This document shows, piece by piece, positions 32,291-53,306 of a stretch of 64,000 nt of DNA. This DNA is from a virus. Its lineage: Duplodnaviria; Heunggongvirae; Uroviricota; Caudoviricetes. The first letter of the stretch is position 1. The number at the start of each line of letters is the position of its first letter. The position numbers and the translations under genes were made by a program. Below the pieces are notes generated by a model, which was given only the letters and a program-made list of their open reading frames with translations, was not told the DNA's origin and searched no databases. The stretch lies in IMG/VR virus record IMGVR_UViG_3300040781_000350; one strand, given 5' to 3'.

Positions 32291-32377
32291 GCCTAGGTGG
32301 CTCAGTTGGTCGACAGCGCCTGCTTTGTAAGCAGGATCCTACAGGACTCGTGGGTTCGAATCCCACCCTAGGCTCCA
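32291..32377 (+). tRNA. trnT: tRNA-Thr(UGU), enlarged variable arm
   Basis: full cloverleaf, CCTGC-TTTGTAA-GCAGG, CCA encoded. Confidence 0.9.
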
Positions 32378-34541: not shown

Positions 34542-35216
34542 ATGGAATATATTACCATTATTTGCAAAAATTGCGAACAAGAACATCGATACCCTAAACG
34601 TCATTATATTCAAAGACAGAAAACAGGAAGACCGCATAAGATATATTGTTCAAGACATTGTGCTGATATCGGTAAATCGGTCAAATACGAAAAAAGACAT
34701 TGTGTTGTATGTAAAGATGAATTTAATTGTAAATCAAATTTAAAAACAAAATGTTGTAGTCGTAAATGTGCTGATAATTTACATAATCCTAAAAAGAAAT
34801 GTGGCAAATGTAAAAAACCTGATTGTAATAATATTACCAGTAATCATCGAAAAGTATTATGTGATATATGTATTGGTGAAGGTAGATCATATTATAAAGC
34901 ATATAATTACATGTTACCAGATGAGCTTCCTCTTTATAAAGTTATAAAACAAAGAGGTTCAAATAAATTTGATGTAGTTAGATCATGGGCTCGTAAAAAA
35001 ATGATCAACAGTGGTGTAGAATTAAAATGCGATGTTTGTGATTATGATATTCATGTTGAAGCAGCACATATTAAACCTTTAAGTACATTTTCACCAGATA
35101 CACTCATTTCAGAAGTTAACTCATTTGATAACTTAAGATTGATGTGCCGTAATCATCATTGGGAGCTTGACCATGGGGTATTAAAAGAAAAAATTTCATC
35201 GCCGCGAAGCTCTTAG
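34542..35216 (+). mobile_element. HNH homing endonuclease with multiple zinc ribbons
   Basis: YCSRHC, CCSRKC repeats; EAAHIKP...NLRLMCRNHH. Confidence 0.85.
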
Positions 35217-35289
35217 TAGAGCAGTTGGATTTATATCCCAATGTCTAGATAAGAAACAGGAAGGGGAGCGTAACCCCTCGCGGCGACCA
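35200..35289 (+). tRNA. tRNA-Ile(UAU)-like, degenerate T-loop
   Basis: CGCCGCG/CGCGGCG acceptor, loop TTTATAT, ACCA; overlaps the HNH stop. Confidence 0.5.
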
Positions 35290-35313: not shown

Positions 35314-35406
35314 CGTGGAGTGCCCGAGTTGGTTTAAGGGATCCGGCTTGGAACCGGATGAATTGGCCCGTTGTCTGTTCCGTGGGTTCGAATCCCACCT
35401 CCGCGA
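35314..35406 (+). tRNA. class II (Ser-like) tRNA with UGG (Pro) anticodon
   Basis: TCCGG-CTTGGAA-CCGGA, long variable arm, Ser-like D-arm, no CCA. Confidence 0.65.
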
Positions 35407-35416
35407 CATTTTATAT

Positions 35417-35675: not shown

Positions 35676-35760
35676 TCTGACGTAGCCGAGCTGGTAGCAG
35701 GCGACAGACTGTTAATCTGTAGGAGAAATCCCGTCGGTGGTTCGAGCCCACCCGTCAGAG
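35676..35760 (+). tRNA. trnN: tRNA-Asn(GUU), enlarged variable arm
   Basis: ACAGA-CTGTTAA-TCTGT, G73, no CCA. Confidence 0.85.
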
Positions 35761-35771
35761 CTTTATTTTAT

Positions 35772-38275: not shown

Positions 38276-38367
38276 TGCAGGGTAGTGTAATCCGGTAACA
38301 TGTCGGGCTCATAACCCGAAGAAGCACTTCGAGTGTGTTGTAGGTTCAAATCCTTCCCCTGCCTCCA
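38276..38367 (+). tRNA. trnfM: initiator-like tRNA-fMet(CAU) with long variable arm
   Basis: three G-C pairs TCGGG/CCCGA, 1:72 mismatch, CCA. Confidence 0.8.
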
Positions 38368-41440: not shown

Positions 41441-42100
41441 ATGAACTACCAAAACATATACAATTCTCTAATTCAAAAACGATTAAAAGAACCTGCCACA
41501 GGTTACACAGAAAAGCATCATATCATTCCAAAATCTTTGGGCGGCTCAGATGATCTATCCAATTTGGTAGTTCTAAGCGGAAGAGAACACTGGGTTGCCC
41601 ATTTACTTTTATACAAGATTCATAAATGTTCTAAAATGGCTCATGCTTGTAATATGATGTCAATGAGATGTAATGAACGTGGTATTCCGAAGATACGAAA
41701 TAGTAGAATGTATCAAATGATTAGAACTATCTGCATCGAAAACATGCGATTTGATATGAGTATAAAACAGAAAGGTGATAAAAACTCTCAATATGGTACT
41801 ATATGGATTTGTAATAAAAAATTACAACAGAATAGAAAGATTTCAAAAGATGAACAAATACCAAATGGATGGATAAAAGGTCGCAACAAATGGGTACCAA
41901 AATGGCGACCGACACCTGGAAAAACATATACACGTAACAAAAAATACACCAAAACATGTAAAACATGTCAAGGTATGTTTAAAACAACACTTTCATCACA
42001 AACATTTTGTTCAAAAACATGTATAAGACCAACCGACACAGCTCGTAACAACATGTCAACTGCTCAAAAGAAAAGATTTTCAAATGCTCGCGTCGCATAG
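41441..42100 (+). mobile_element. HNH homing endonuclease (MobE/I-TevIII-like)
   Basis: MNYQNIYNSLI...EKHHIIPKSLGGSDDLSNLVVLSGREHWVAHLLL. Confidence 0.9.
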
Positions 42101-42171
42101 TGGCTAGTGCACCTCCTTTACACGGAGAGCTCCTGAAAAGGTCGCAGGTTCGAGTCCTGCCGCGAGTACCA
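42086..42171 (+). tRNA. trnV: tRNA-Val(UAC), enlarged variable arm
   Basis: CTCC-TTTACAC-GGAG, CCA. Confidence 0.88.
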
Positions 42172-44729: not shown

Positions 44730-44806
44730 GCATTAATAGTTCAGTTGGCAGAACGGGCGCCTCTAAAACGCTGTCGTCGCGGGTTCGAGTCCCGCTTAAT
44801 GCACCA
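44730..44806 (+). tRNA. amber suppressor tRNA (CUA)
   Basis: perfect 7-bp acceptor, D-arm GTTC/GAAC, loop CTCTAAA, T-arm, A73, CCA. Confidence 0.88.
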
Positions 44807-44949: not shown

Positions 44950-45312
44950 ATGACATAGAAAAATATATACGCAGTGGTTCGACATGACCTTAATATGTCC
45001 GCAGGTAAGATCGCTTCTCAAGCAGGTCATGCCTATTTAGATTCATATCTAAAAAATCCTGATACAGAGTATCTAAACAATCCAACTAAGATTTGCCTAG
45101 GAGCAAATGAAACAGAGTTGGAGAAAGTATGCCATAAATGTGAGATGCTTGACATCCCGCATTCCAAAATTATTGATCCAGACTTTACAATTGCTGGAAA
45201 CAACGTAATTCGCAACGAGAACAACCAAGAACCAGCATTTACTGCAGTAGGCATCGGTCCTATTGCTAAGCAAGATGTAAAACGAGTTCTTAGCAACCTC
45301 AAACTACTTTAA
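44950..45312 (+). CDS. pth2: peptidyl-tRNA hydrolase type 2, with in-frame TAG at codon 3
   Basis: VVRHDLNMSAGKIASQAGHA and TAVGIGP motifs; ATG ACA TAG AAA AAT ATA TAC GCA GTG is in frame with the tracked GTG 44974. Confidence 0.85.
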
Positions 45313-46025: not shown

Positions 46026-46103
46026 TCAGATACGCGGCCTAGTAGGCAGAGGCACCCGCCTGTGACGCGGGGGAAGTGGGTTCGAATCCCACCGATCTGA
46101 CCA
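46026..46103 (+). tRNA. trnH: tRNA-His(GUG)
   Basis: CCCGC-CTGTGAC-GCGGG, T-arm, CCA. Confidence 0.8.
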
Positions 46104-46111
46104 TTTTATTT

Positions 46112-46388
46112 ATAGGAAGTTGGCTTAGAAGCAGCCATCTTTTAAAGAGTGGGGTCCACTCTCCCTTTGTGACTTTGTAACCTAGCCGGTCTGAACCAGG
46201 ATAAGGTAGGCGAACACAAAATAACAGCACTATCGTAATGATCTGCGGTAACTGTTTGAGTTAGTTGCGGGGAGCGTTCAGAGTGAGATTCGAGTAATAC
46301 GGCCGTGAAATGACACGGTTTCGAAATAGCAAAGCTCAGAAATGATAACCTTGCTATAAACCACCCCTTTGGCGTAAAAGCACACTAT
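46112..46388 (+). ncRNA. RNA containing a 23S rRNA L11-binding (H43-H44) domain mimic with a 221-nt insert
   Basis: AGGAAGTTGGCTTAGAAGCAGCCATCTTTTAAAGAGT [insert] GCGTAAAAGCACACTAT, near-identical to the conserved 23S 1051-1108 region. Confidence 0.8.
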
Positions 46389-46399
46389 AAAAATTTTAT

Positions 46400-46487
46400 G
46401 GAGGTATGGCGAAATTGGTAGCACGCAACGATCTTAAACGTCGTTGGTCGAAAGACCGTGAGGGTTCGAGTCCCTCTACCTCTACCA
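46400..46487 (+). tRNA. trnL: tRNA-Leu(UAA)
   Basis: ACGAT-CTTAAAC-GTCGT, class II, CCA. Confidence 0.88.
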
Positions 46488-46544: not shown

Positions 46545-46646
46545 GATCCGTTGGCGAAATTGGTAAACGCGCGGCAGAGGCCGTTCATATATTAATAATA
46601 CTAGTTAAACTATATGAGACTGGAGGTTCGAGTCCTTCACGGGTTA
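46545..46646 (+). pseudogene. Leu-type tRNA with collapsed 4-nt anticodon loop and AT-rich long V-arm
   Basis: Leu D-arm, GCGGC-AGAG-GCCGT, T-arm, no CCA. Confidence 0.6.
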
Positions 46647-47249: not shown

Positions 47250-47598
47250 GGGGGTGACCAGGAATCGATTTGATGACATTGTCTACCCTATGCAAGCAGG
47301 AGTGATATCCTCCTTAACAATATCAAATTACTAATTGGCGAAAATCAATTAATGGCTGCGTAATTGTAGCCCCTCAAAACTAGAGATACCTGATATCTAG
47401 GAGTAGGGGTCGACTATCAGGCACCTGATCATTACAGGTTAAAGAAATGATGATTGGTTTGCGAGCTAAAAGAAATTCGTAGGACACCCGATAGTCCAAA
47501 CACGGGAGTAGATTGCTATTTACGAAGAAAATAGCTAAGCTTGTGAACGATTAGGATGACAAACATGAAAGACGCGAGTTCGAATCTCGCCACCTCCA
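47250..47598 (+). ncRNA. ssrA: tmRNA, tag (A)GENQLMAA
   Basis: GGGGGTG acceptor with G3:U70, tag ORF 47337-47363 ending GCT GCG TAA, 3' T-arm GCGAG-TTCGAAT-CTCGC. Confidence 0.93.
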
Positions 47599-47606
47599 GG
47601 TTTTAG

Positions 47607-47619: not shown

Positions 47620-48351
47620 ATGAACTATGTATATAAAATTATAAATCGTATAAACGGTAAATATTATATCGGGATGAGAAAATGTCCAAAAGGTATAAAA
47701 CCTGATCAAGATAATTATTTCGGATCTGGTAAAAATATTAAAAGAGCTATTAAAAAATATGGTATTGATTCATTTTCAAAAGAAATACTTTATGAATCAT
47801 TAGATAGAGACTTTATTGCTGATAAAGAAAAGCAGTTAGTAAACAGTTTAACAGTTTCAGATAGTCAATGTTATAATATGCGTGTAGGTGGATATGGTGG
47901 ATGGGATCATGTTAATAAAGATAGAACATCTGCTTTTTATTCAGAAATAGGTAAAAGGGGGTATAAAGAAGGTATTTGTAAGTTAACAAAACATGAAAGA
48001 TCGCTGAGAAGTAAAAAATCTGCTATTACACGCAAAAAAACAAATTTCAAACATGAATATTCAGCTGAGCAACGTGAAAGAATGTCAAAATCACACAAAG
48101 GTTCAAAAAATTCACAATATGGTACAGTATGGTGTATTAAAGAAACATCACAAACCAATACTAAACATAACCGTAAAAAATTCAAATATACTGAAATACC
48201 TAAAGGTTGGATAACAACTCAAGCATGGAAAGAAAAAAACGACAAACGAGACCCTAAAAAAACACGTTCGTGGTATAACGATGGAAATAAAAGTTTTTTA
48301 TTACTACCAGATGATGTAAGAATAAAACTACTTTCAAAAGGTAGAATATAA
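47620..48351 (+). mobile_element. GIY-YIG homing endonuclease (Seg-like)
   Basis: YVYKIINRINGKYYIG, YFGSG, YNMRVGG. Confidence 0.9.
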
Positions 48352-49218: not shown

Positions 49219-50055
49219 GTTTAATAGATGGCGGTTTGGCGTCACTAGATAAAGCATCGTAAGGTGTTGAAAGCATATAGGTCTTAATATATGCGCTATG
49301 CAAATAGTCATCCATTCATTCCAAAGTTCTCATTGGCGAAAGTTGATGAGCATCAGTCCATTCTGGTGTGAAAGAACATATTGAGGGTTATAAGTGTACC
49401 TAGGCCAACGGTGAAGGTATACGGAAATTAGTAGTTTCCTGTGACCATACTAACTCAGTACTTCCTTAGAATAAATACTAACTCAGTACTTCCTTAGAAT
49501 AAACGGTAGATATCGTGTCAGAGTTTAGCAGACGATGGCTGATTATCATTACAAACGGGCGAGAGTTCGTGAAGTAGCCTCCAAACTTCCGCTAGAAGAG
49601 GAGATCGGAGCGTGTTGTATTTCGTAGTTCAAAAGACCGCGAAGCGACAGGACATGCACGCTCTATAAGACACAAAGAATATAGATCAATGGTAGATCAA
49701 TTGTATATAGAACAATATGTTGAAGGTTCAAGTCCTCCTTTTCATTAACACGAAAAAGCAAAAGCCATGTCCTTACGTTGTAGAAAATAGTCTAATACTA
49801 TACACGAAAGTGAATATAGTGCTTGTGAACTCGCAAGGGGATCAAGTTTAGCGATACAAGTAATCAAGTTTTGAGAGTAAGCTCCTCACTTCTGATGAAA
49901 ATATGCTGAGTATATAACGTACCATAGTAGAAATGCTACTACTTTAAAAAAGCGACTATTGTAACATACTATTTAAAAAGTAGTGGATAAGTTTTTAACC
50001 GATATAGGGTACGGAAACGAAAGTGTTACTGAAAAAGGTATAATCTCAGCCTCGG
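49200..50055 (+). ncRNA. large ornate ncRNA, GOLLD-like candidate, with embedded degenerate tRNA (~49674-49745)
   Basis: ~850 nt ORF-free region dense in GNRA-capped hairpins, between a strong promoter and a terminator next to the tRNA array. Confidence 0.6.
49447..49502 (+). repeat. perfect 28-nt tandem duplication
   Basis: ATACTAACTCAGTACTTCCTTAGAATAA x2. Confidence 0.95.
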
Positions 50056-51069: not shown

Positions 51070-53306
51070 CCTTTGTACTCATTAACTACTGGATCAGCTG
51101 TTGATCTAGCACTGAGATTAAGTTCTTTAGCATCAGTACGAACCTCAGCATTTGTCGCTTTAAGATCAAGTGGTAGATTAGGAAAAATATGAGCATGTTC
51201 GTATGCTTGTACAAGATTTGGTTCACTTGTGACAACAGTGATTGTACCTGTTGATGGTTTTACTGCACCGTCATTATCTAATGTAAAGTCGCTTCCTAGT
51301 GTTGCTGTAAATGAAACACCACCTACCAATTCACCGAATAACTGAGTTATATTAGTTCGCTGCCATTCAAGCGGAGCAGTAACATGTTGTAGATATGTTT
51401 CCCCCTCGATCATTATACCACCACCGACGACAACATTACCACCAACTCCGAGATTATTTTCAACTAAGATTTGACGCTGGCGTTTTGAACGTAATCTCAG
51501 AATCTCACCAGATATGTTTACGGTATTAGCATCAATATTCACTTCATTTTCAGAACCGATATTGACTTGTTCCCCAGCTATATTCGTAATCGTACCAGTA
51601 ATATTAGTTGGTCCGTATGATTTGAGGTTCAAACCACCAGCTCCGACCATTACGTTATAACGGTTGCAAACATTTAAAGTGTAATTACCACCAGGCATAT
51701 CTTGAACATGTACATACTCTACAAGAGGTGATGCAGCTCTACTTTGATATACAACGCTATCATCAACAAGGACTTCATTAGGTGTTAATTTACCAATATT
51801 GTCAAGTCGAATACTACCAAAATCGTTCATGAGCATCCCGATTGTTTCCATCTTATGCTTTGTAATTTCGATAATTTCACTCCCGCCAATACCCATTTTA
51901 CGTTCAATTTCTGCAAGTTCGACGATCTTACTATTTATAATAGCTGTTAATTCATCTTTTTTAGTTTCAACTTCCCAAGCACCGTCTTGTGTTGAAGGAC
52001 TAAGCCCGCTGTTTAATAATAACCCAGATTGTGTCTCCCAATCACCTGTTATAGATGCATTTGCTGCATTACCTATTGAATCAACAGCATCAACAAGATC
52101 AACATCATCCTTTACTGTATTGTTTCTTATCTGTACAGCTGGTACACTAAGTGAATTGTTTAAATTTAGACTTAAATATACATCACTCAACACATTAAAA
52201 TCTGCAAAAGTACCTGATCTAGTTTGCTGTACACTATTGCGTTTAAGAATAACGTTACCGCTCCCATCTTTAACAGAATTATCTACTGCTCGTCTGATTT
52301 CAAACAACTGTTTGTTGTCTTGAATACCTGAAACAATATCTCTCCACTGTTCAAAATATTCAGCATTTAGATTACCAACTTTGGTATACTTGTCTCTCTG
52401 TACAATTTCGTCAAGATTCTTACCTGTAAATTCGTTTCTGAATCCTTGTACTGTAGAATAACTATCGTTTTGAATAAGTGATTGTTTGTTATTTGATGCA
52501 AATTCTGTACTTGTATGGTTATTCATTTCATTGAATGAACCACTACTTTGTGTAAGCTTTACACTCTCCTTGAGATCAGTATTACATATTTCAAATGCTC
52601 CACCTTTTTGATTTATCAAATATTTGTTTCGGTATGTTTCGACATTATGATCTGGCTCAGTAATACCACTACCATAATTTTCAAACTTGCCAGGGTAATC
52701 AATATCATCATAGACACCAGCCCAATCACTTTTACCAAACGATGCTCCCATTATAACAGGAAATTGCGGATCACCTTCTCTGAAGAATACAAAAACGTGT
52801 GCACCTACAGCAGGTATACCAAACGCACCTTTTGCTCTATTAGAGTATGTAGATGGTTTATACATATAACTGTATGGGTTTTTGTTATTTACTCTTTCAT
52901 CATTAGCAAACGCATCTTTCGGTCTGTTAAAACTTTTTTCATAAACTTCACCAGGTGCTTGACCTACTGGTTCACCAGACGCAGATTTAAAATTTGTTTG
53001 GGTATTTGAATCGGAAATGCTACCATATAAACTACGATTATTAAATCGCGCACTTGCATTTTCACTTGTAAGCGGCATACATGTTTCACTCCATGGTAAA
53101 ATTTGTTTCAGTGTGTTTAATATTGGTGTTAAATCACTATCAATATTCAAACCAGTGAATTTAAATTTTTTGTTTGTGTTATCCTTCACCCAGTCTGTAT
53201 AGACAGCACTAGCTATATGAGGTACAAACACTTTCACGCGTCCTCGTTTTTCCGGGTCGTTATTTTGTACTACTATACCTGTGTATATGCTGTTGTATTC
53301 TTTCAT
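51066..53306 (-). CDS. baseplate hub / tail spike (T4 gp5-like, OB-fold plus beta-helix)
   Basis: GIVVQNNDPEKRGRVKVFVP, PAVGAHVFVFFREGDPQFPV, beta-repeat C-terminus. Confidence 0.8.
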   Translation of the reverse strand: MKEYNSIYTGIVVQNNDPEKRGRVKVFVPHIASAVYTDWVKDNTNKKFKFTGLNIDSDLTPILNTLKQILPWSETCMPLTSENASARFNNRSLYGSISDSNTQTNFKSASGEPVGQAPGEVYEKSFNRPKDAFANDERVNNKNPYSYMYKPSTYSNRAKGAFGIPAVGAHVFVFFREGDPQFPVIMGASFGKSDWAGVYDDIDYPGKFENYGSGITEPDHNVETYRNKYLINQKGGAFEICNTDLKESVKLTQSSGSFNEMNNHTSTEFASNNKQSLIQNDSYSTVQGFRNEFTGKNLDEIVQRDKYTKVGNLNAEYFEQWRDIVSGIQDNKQLFEIRRAVDNSVKDGSGNVILKRNSVQQTRSGTFADFNVLSDVYLSLNLNNSLSVPAVQIRNNTVKDDVDLVDAVDSIGNAANASITGDWETQSGLLLNSGLSPSTQDGAWEVETKKDELTAIINSKIVELAEIERKMGIGGSEIIEITKHKMETIGMLMNDFGSIRLDNIGKLTPNEVLVDDSVVYQSRAASPLVEYVHVQDMPGGNYTLNVCNRYNVMVGAGGLNLKSYGPTNITGTITNIAGEQVNIGSENEVNIDANTVNISGEILRLRSKRQRQILVENNLGVGGNVVVGGGIMIEGETYLQHVTAPLEWQRTNITQLFGELVGGVSFTATLGSDFTLDNDGAVKPSTGTITVVTSEPNLVQAYEHAHIFPNLPLDLKATNAEVRTDAKELNLSARSTADPVVNEYKG

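Follow-up and report, generated by a model that had tools for sequence, protein, structure and literature searches.

The stretch of DNA analysed here, called the window throughout, spans 64 kb of a 221-kb IMG/VR virus record (IMGVR_UViG_3300040781_000350), and all coordinates given are positions within it. Inserted in a tRNA array of this phage, between the genes for tRNA-His and tRNA-Leu, is a 283-nt RNA element (46109-46391, + strand) whose two ends together rebuild helices 42, 43 and 44 (H42, H43 and H44) of 23S rRNA, equivalent to E. coli positions 1051-1108. This part of the ribosome is the GTPase-associated centre (GAC). The element belongs to a family of phage RNAs whose existence is near certain. 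These RNAs are shown to be under selection that keeps both the secondary structure and the tertiary-contact nucleotides of the GAC. Judged from sequence, the RNA probably binds a GAC ligand, and we give even chances to the wider reading that it serves as a decoy for the ribosomal protein uL11 or another such ligand.

The core of the element, some 70 nt, corresponds to the top of H42, H43, the turn at 1082-1086 and H44 of the autonomously folding GAC. A preliminary description of the locus had proposed a non-coding RNA carrying the uL11-binding H43-H44 domain with an insert in H44; the sequences it quoted are present where it placed them, and two model searches bear the proposal out. In the first, a check that it had itself suggested, the Rfam model of bacterial large-subunit (LSU) rRNA (RF02541) aligned 46114-46166 to model positions 1095-1146, covering H43 and the start of H44, at 29 bits (E 5.9e-7), which falls below the gathering score of 50 bits. 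The same model gave no further rRNA match across the 221-kb genome, and the neighbouring rRNA domains are absent; measured by score (at least 50 bits) and by neighbouring domains, the element is not an LSU rRNA. In the second, a covariance model built from 39 short elements of other phages (R1) matched 46109-46181 with 56.9 bits (E 2.5e-14) and 46264-46391 with 24.9 bits, the match being split in two by a long insert. From these two hits, the resemblance of the window element to the family is far beyond chance. In E. coli numbering, which is used below for the core, 1051 is equivalent to 46111, A1067 to 46127, U1090 to 46150, G1091 to 46372, A1095 to 46376 and 1108 to 46389. The parts of the element and the two flanking genes are as follows.

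46027-46103 (+): tRNA-His (GTG), called by ARAGORN and scoring 42.2 bits with the Rfam tRNA model; separated from the element by 5 nt at its 3' end.
46109-46115 (+): 5' strand of the H42-like closing stem, UUUAUAG (1051-1055 plus two extra pairs), pairing with 46385-46391; 7/7 pairs are doubly changed within the family.
46116-46141 (+): G1056 followed by H43, with a lower stem (46117-46119/46139-46141), an upper stem (46122-46125/46133-46136) and A1067 (46127) in the loop; placed by the LSU alignment and the R1 match, with covariation at 1057/1081 and 1058/1080 and a near-invariant loop.
46142-46146 (+): the 1082-1086 turn, UUAAA, in which U46142 pairs with A46146; 1082/1086 is U-A, C-G or A-U in the family.
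46147-46150 (+): GAGU (G1087, A1088, G1089, U1090), the 5' strand of lower H44, invariant in the alignment; the partner of A1088 is U1060 (46120).
46151-46367 (+): variable inserted domain (217 nt) with the closing stem GGGGU (46151-46155)/ACCCC (46363-46367); within it lies GGGGAGCGUUC, part of a stem in the predicted fold.
46368-46371 (+): UUUG linker, a family signature without rRNA counterpart, TTTG in 112/124 unique members and TTTA in 7/124.
46372-46381 (+): upper H44 hairpin GCGUAAAAGC (1091-1100), placed by sequence and the R1 match; A1095 is 46376.
46382-46391 (+): A1101 (pairs with U1090; U in rRNA), C1102 (pairs with G1087) and A1103 (opposite G1056), followed by CUAUAAA at 46385-46391.
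46400-46487 (+): tRNA-Leu (TAA), called by ARAGORN and scoring 52.9 bits with the Rfam tRNA model; it begins 8 nt past the closing stem.

The preliminary description had closed the element with ATAG/CTAT; that stem is present, but it extends to 7 bp (UUUAUAG/CUAUAAA). The 221-nt insert that it bounded by GGGGT/ACCCC is the 217-nt insert together with the 4-nt UUUG linker, and its idea of a processed unit lying between tRNA-His and tRNA-Leu agrees with the ARAGORN calls and their gaps of 5 nt and 8 nt. All canonical GAC pairs are present in the window (1051-1055/1104-1108, 1057-1059/1079-1081, 1062-1065/1073-1076, 1087/1102 and 1091-1092/1099-1100), as are all nucleotides of the tertiary contacts (U1060-A1088, the 1082-1086 pair, G1071, C1072, G1093-A1098, A1067 and A1095). 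H44 is not a continuous hairpin from 1087 to 1102, as the insert and UUUG lie between 1090 and 1091 and position 1101 is an A. Excising the insert and linker gives back the bacterial consensus GAGU-GCGUAA exactly. The window element carries every signature of the family: a GAC-like core, a stem-closed insert directly after GAGU, UUUG, A1101 and a closing stem whose sequence is free.

The family was assembled from several independent searches. With blastn against GenBank phages, several large phages were found to have the H43 half in intergenic DNA without annotation, and each of the loci that were read carried the 3' half CUUUGGCGUA(A/G)NAGCACAC after an insert of 130-230 nt. IMG/VR was scanned for the 3' half using the pattern TTTGGCGTANNAGCNCAC, which true 23S cannot match; at least 120 loci were obtained, and in 95 of the 120 matches listed the H43 half was found no more than 700 nt upstream on the same strand. 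A separate scan for the 5' half gave at least 76 further loci, 71 of the matches listed having an insert and the 3' half, while none of the 76 listed continued as genuine 23S. In total the family comprises at least 150 elements from IMG/VR and GenBank phages, at least 124 of them unique, with lengths of 90-431 nt, and the split architecture is common to all 150 elements collected. Seven cultured phages carry the full element (GAP32, CBB, pf16, Astolliot, 4_4572, XacN1 and RSP15), and R1 recovers it in pf16, Astolliot, 4_4572, GAP32, XacN1 and RSP15. This model also matched all of the near-complete element-bearing records tested (26/26), mostly as a single copy per genome. When 596 Gb of bacterial and archaeal genomes were searched with the 3' pattern, at least 120 matches were returned, of which only 7 of the 120 listed had the H43 half, and several of these 7 sit in phage-like tRNA arrays. 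The family is thus essentially viral and almost absent from bacterial genomes. Lack of homologues with a conserved core had been named in the preliminary description as grounds for giving up its proposal; at least 150 homologues exist, and their core is near-invariant and covarying.

A few records hold additional or divergent copies. G032, the IMG/VR record of L248, has two full-scoring copies about 3 kb apart (48159-48320 and 51430-51583, - strand; 107 and 119 bits). In Pseudomonas phage Astolliot (L002, ~1167-1487) a second, divergent GAC-like element lies directly upstream of the canonical one and is closed by AACAGG/CCUGUU. Read by eye, this paralogue has U1072 together with U1092-A1099, and C at 1095; R1 matches it partially (15.5 bits). 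We take the combination of U1072 with U1092-A1099 to be the base-triple covariation of rRNA. A similar weak second R1 match is located beside the element of G028. Vibrio phage 2.275.O (L326, ~794-1020) contains a divergent member with the H44 loop GCUUAAUCGC in place of GCGUAAUAGC, and its insert ends in GACCCUUAGAG, like those of GAP32 and CBB.

Covariation was analyzed in an alignment of 39 members using the GAC-type structure with the insert closing stem added to it. In this alignment 94.9% of cells were paired, versus 71.2% in column shuffles (0/500 reached the observed value) and 35-51% when the partners were slid, and the covariation score was 0.59 against 0.14. Double compensatory changes were seen in the closing stem (7/7 pairs), lower H43 (2/3 pairs), the 1082/1086 pair and the insert closing stem (4/4 pairs). 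The pair 1057/1081 occurs as A-U or C-G, and 1058/1080 as U-A, G-C, A-U or C-G. Loci found only through the 5' half add rare compensatory changes in H44, where 1091/1100 and 1092/1099 each become U-A, and many at 1055/1104, where G-C becomes A-U. The nucleotides that make tertiary contacts are invariant or above 94% across the family; U1060-A1088, G1071, C1072, G1093-A1098, A1069 and U1066 are invariant or nearly so, and the U1060/A1088 pair was kept in 39/39 and 84/84 members in two counts. The H44 loop (G1093, U1094, A1095, A1098) and the H43 loop are the best-conserved parts. Position 1061 is free in the family, as it is in rRNA (PMC6239185). The invariance of GAGU is partly a matter of ascertainment, GAGT having been required by the parse; UUUG was likewise partly ascertained through the 3' search pattern, and it is also present in loci found through the 5' half alone.

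A number of derived characters are common to the members and absent from 23S, namely A1101, UUUG (rarely UUUA) before G1091 and the obligatory insert. A1101 is found in 123/124 members and forms a Watson-Crick pair with U1090, whereas the Rfam LSU consensus has a conserved U at this position. Within the Enterobacterales phages the element reads GAGU at 1087-1090, and blastn identity to enterobacterial 23S ends at about position 1088. The 23S rRNA of their hosts has GAAA at 1087-1090. The element is therefore no recent capture from host rRNA. These characters bear on whether the elements could be captured and decaying host 23S rDNA, or contaminants of assembly. True rDNA does occur in phage records, such as that of Pd_22F, and many small "phage" records returned by blastn are rDNA. 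However, only about 70 nt of the window element are rRNA-like, its closing stem has an unrelated sequence, the 221-kb genome contains no other match to the LSU model, and more than 120 distinct phage versions share the derived characters while keeping their pairs by compensatory changes. Because of the covariation and the family-specific signatures, we consider this explanation refuted, with hardly any probability left to it.

Some candidates for further 23S-derived sequence were rejected. The preliminary description had also likened GGGGAGCGTTC, within the insert, to 23S; this fell away, since the LSU model does not align it, it is found in 1/124 members, and chance alone would give about 0.15 exact 11-mer matches between sequences of 217 nt and 2.9 kb. 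The segments AAGGUAGGCGAA, CGUAAUGAU and GGGGAGCGUUC resembled 23S by eye, and none was aligned by the LSU model. Paenibacillus phage Pd_22F (L323, MZ092003.1), which had been a candidate for a Gram-positive member, was excluded as its match runs on as true 23S over more than 500 nt. Toward the right end of this record (~83.4-84.0 kb), 500 nt or more are true 23S rDNA, which may stem from the host, from transduction or from an artefact of assembly.

Every member found contains an insert, whose length ranges from 24 to 365 nt; among the 76 listed loci from the 5'-half scan, none is without one. The first base of the insert pairs with the base immediately preceding the linker. The 124 unique elements fall into 90 insert sequence clusters, among which the window insert is a singleton. 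The shortest inserts (24-45 nt) are simple hairpins. Two modules recur: CACCCC-(tetraloop hairpin)-GGUAAGG next to the 3' junction in 27 members, and GUGCGAAAUG...GAUGUG in 13-14 members. A second expansion site is located after A1077 in 9 members. No common core is shared by the inserts. For the window insert, no relatives were found through the locus of a neighbouring 489-aa protein; blastn against the other inserts gave only chance matches of 13-14 nt; two patterns drawn from it hit 27 IMG/VR loci, none with an R1 match; and two metagenome scans gave no match. Its predicted fold has a z-score of -1.35, which is not significant on its own.

If the insert were a self-splicing intron or intervening sequence within an rRNA-like exon, removal of the insert and UUUG should restore the exon, and it does restore GAGU|GCGUAA exactly. 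The boundaries, with U as the last base of the 5' flank and G as that of the insert plus linker, recall group I introns. Yet Rfam intron models gave no match at E up to 10, the inserts have no common core, and the smallest of them (24-45 nt) could not hold the core of a group I or group II intron. In the window, the U preceding the insert pairs with A and not G, in a hairpin that only 4/124 members possess. An intron is accordingly regarded as extremely improbable.

A different use of the insert would make it the working part of the RNA, presented by a compact core which, perhaps clamped by uL11, forms a nuclease-resistant frame with sealed ends. The presence of an insert in every member, its hypervariability, the modules that recur across clusters and the second expansion site are all in keeping with such a carrier. 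Against it, a mere frame has no need of the near-invariant and exposed A1067, A1069, U1094 and A1095, inserts of 24-45 nt offer only simple hairpins, and no insert matches any Rfam family. We rate this as rather unlikely.

The tRNA island of the window, at 32-50 kb, includes 39 tRNA genes and a transfer-messenger RNA (tmRNA) called by ARAGORN, plus a GOLLD RNA. Across the family a tRNA is located within 300 nt of the element in 47/99 cases, and all such tRNAs are on the same strand. Gaps between element and tRNA are often about 10 nt on both sides. Up to 1.5 kb away from the elements on each side, the longest open reading frames (ORFs) are mostly co-oriented. A Pfam scan of 208 flanking ORFs (104 on each side) showed no recurrent family, the best being HNH with 3/104. 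A uL11 gene (Ribosomal_L11) was found neither in this genome nor in any of 46 other element-bearing phage records, so any uL11 partner must be host-encoded. No RelA_SpoT domain was found in this genome, and a promoter and terminator scan around the element gave nothing above shuffled expectation. From the lack of a recurrent neighbour family and the same-strand tRNA setting, the element looks like an independent RNA gene.

The same data speak to a cis-acting leader that would control a downstream gene by binding a ribosomal protein. Mimicry of rRNA by mRNA leaders is the classical route to ribosomal-protein binding (PMC3616713). There is, however, no recurrent gene family among the 104 + 104 neighbours and no ribosomal-protein gene beside members; tRNAs are the neighbours in the window, as they are in roughly half of the family, and the 47 genomes lack uL11. 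A leader function is very improbable and, like the rDNA and intron explanations, is contradicted by the data.

The reading that we favour is a GAC mimic acting in trans. On the ribosome the GAC is the site of elongation-factor activation, and it is needed for the activation of RelA through uL11. The phage RNA would be transcribed as part of the tRNA-array transcript and released by the enzymes that process the flanking tRNAs. With the insert and UUUG, H44 would become a three-way junction in which two strands join without linker and UUUG lies on the third, an arrangement compatible with upper H44 stacking on lower H44 and the insert projecting sideways; upper H44 can likely still dock on H43. 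The RNA would then fold like the rRNA domain and bind a ligand of that domain, most likely host uL11. An isolated rRNA domain of 58-60 nt folds alone and binds L11 and thiostrepton (PMC6239185), and it is because of this autonomy and the conserved core that uL11 binding is suggested. As a decoy the RNA may draw uL11, or factors that recognize the uL11-RNA surface, off ribosomes during infection, and the pay-off, which is speculative, might be a weaker uL11-dependent RelA response or altered recruitment of factors. More tentatively, and at less than even odds, the RNA may hold host uL11, or soak up enzymes or small molecules directed at H43/H44, and in this way disarm a host response acting through the L11 stalk, which could be RelA-dependent stringent control or toxins against the GAC.

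The preliminary description had included uL10 among the proteins to be titrated. On the ribosome uL10 is thought to use a longer H42 region, and since H42 is reduced here to a 5-7 bp closing stem of free sequence, uL10 is a less likely ligand. Its interpretation is partly supported overall: the mimicry is solid, and the function proposed for it is putative.

Several observations weigh against a trans-acting mimic of this kind. The insert enters H44 on the strand facing H43, and a plain uL11 sponge leaves the obligatory insert, UUUG and A1101 unexplained. Most cellular uL11 sits on ribosomes, so its titration within one lytic cycle may be weak. Two exposed bases are slightly less fixed than in rRNA, A1067 being found in 117/124 members and A1095 being replaced by G or C in about 7 of the 76 listed 5'-half loci, and the invariance of 1062-1077 and 1091-1104 is partly imposed by the search patterns, from which the covarying positions are unaffected. 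In the window only, a 7-bp hairpin, AGAGUGG/CCACUCU (46146-46162), competes with lower H44, and the proximal CCCUUUG (46163-46169) repeats the distal junction. Because a comparable complement is found in only 4/124 members, the competing hairpin was treated as a local feature.

A related use of the same surface would be protection, in which the RNA offers a free H43/H44 surface to agents that attack the GAC and so spares the ribosomes that the phage needs; candidate attackers are ADP-ribosyltransferase toxins, abortive-infection nucleases and thiopeptide antibiotics. The setting is suggestive, with the element among phage tRNAs, tmRNA and a peptidyl-tRNA hydrolase, and in such surroundings phage tRNAs are believed to counteract attacks by the host on RNAs of translation. 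The H44 and H43 loops, the most conserved parts, are also what such agents touch: the Rhs toxin Tre23 ADP-ribosylates 23S H44 at nucleotides 1095-1098 and blocks the GTPase of EF-G, and thiopeptides bind H43/H44 (PMC8661411). Tre23 is, however, a toxin of type VI secretion competition and not of phage defence, a stoichiometric decoy faces tens of thousands of competing ribosomes, and the insert is likewise unexplained. Literature searches turned up no phage-defence system that targets the GAC, and we know of none. Protection is on balance unlikely, though worth keeping in mind.

Comparison with known systems sets the phage RNA apart from each of them, none being a free-standing copy of an rRNA functional centre carried by a virus. 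With the GAC of 23S it shares the secondary structure and the invariant loop and tertiary-contact nucleotides, and 1058/1080, 1061, 1082/1086 and 1097 vary in the phage family and in rRNA alike. It differs as a free-standing, phage-encoded RNA of 90-430 nt, where the GAC is part of a 2.9-kb rRNA, with an arbitrary closing stem, A1101 for U, and an obligatory insert and UUUG splitting the 5' strand of H44. Ribosomal-protein leaders (for example the L10 leader and the L1, S8, S15 and L20 sites) are similarly extraribosomal RNAs that imitate a protein-binding site of rRNA. These leaders bind the free ribosomal protein, which the phage RNA may also do, yet they act in cis on the mRNA of their own operon and are mostly loose mimics, while the phage RNA is a near-exact copy without an associated gene, located in phage tRNA arrays. 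Rfam leader models gave no match to the element or to the cultured-phage loci, and we know of no leader that binds L11. Phage tRNAs and tmRNA are likewise host-like translation RNAs of large phages, co-located and probably co-processed with the element, but they serve as functional replacements. No part of a ribosome can be replaced by an isolated rRNA domain, and mimicry or decoy is therefore the natural reading. GOLLD and ROOL, large phage RNAs, occupy the same niche, the tRNA arrays of phages or prophages (PMC12286853), and a link to ribosomes has been suggested for them; they are RNA-only cages that copy no rRNA domain and bear no sequence or structure similarity to the element. A precedent is the non-coding OLE RNA, for which sequestration of a ribosomal protein (bS21) from the ribosome has been proposed (PMC12286853), although OLE is bacterial, unrelated in sequence and contains no copy of an rRNA site.

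Within Rfam 15, only the sub-threshold LSU match covers the element, and no other family matched in the window (E up to 10) or at the seven cultured-phage loci. GOLLD, ROOL and other Rfam models of phage RNAs did not match the element, and no description of this RNA family was found in full-text literature including preprints. It is apparently a large phage RNA family without prior description. Phages carry tRNAs, tmRNA and a few ribosomal proteins; if the reading as a trans-acting copy is true, this would be, to our knowledge, the first virus-encoded functional domain of rRNA. The GAC would then be a battleground between phages and hosts, and its imitation would offer a concrete way to study how large phages adjust or safeguard translation in the host. 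The family may also expose host defences acting on the L11 stalk. For RNA structural biology the family is useful in itself, as a set of over 120 natural variants of a textbook tertiary fold that all have a helix grafted into H44, and the seven cultured phages with full elements make experiments feasible now.

Other features of the tRNA island were noted. A PTH2-type peptidyl-tRNA hydrolase gene (44974-45312, +; Pfam E 2e-17) is located within the tRNA array, ~800 nt upstream of the element, and the gene of a GIY-YIG homing endonuclease is found in the same island (47620-48351). The tmRNA (47250-47599, +) encodes the tag peptide GENQLMAA, whose GEN... start resembles Bacteroidota tags and is presumably a hint at the host. 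The GOLLD RNA (49605-50052, +; 179 bits, above the gathering score) is 3.2 kb downstream of the element in the same array, and a tRNA-like 'Tyr(ata)' was called by ARAGORN within its linker region (49674-49747). A tRNA with the anticodon CTA (44730-44806, +; Rfam tRNA 56 bits), an amber suppressor labelled 'Pyl' by ARAGORN, may point to recoding of TAG in part of the phage genes. A tRNA-like gene at 46545-46646 (+), which scored 36.8 bits with the Rfam tRNA model and was not called by ARAGORN, has a 43-nt insertion in the region of the anticodon arm and may represent a tRNA that is interrupted or contains an intron. Lengths of 86-94 nt were seen for several tRNAs of types whose variable arm is normally short (Thr, Ile-tat, Pro, Asn, Met, Val), and these probably carry extra arms or insertions; such long tRNAs are located at 32291-32377, 35200-35289, 35314-35407, 35676-35761, 38276-38367 and 42086-42171 (+).

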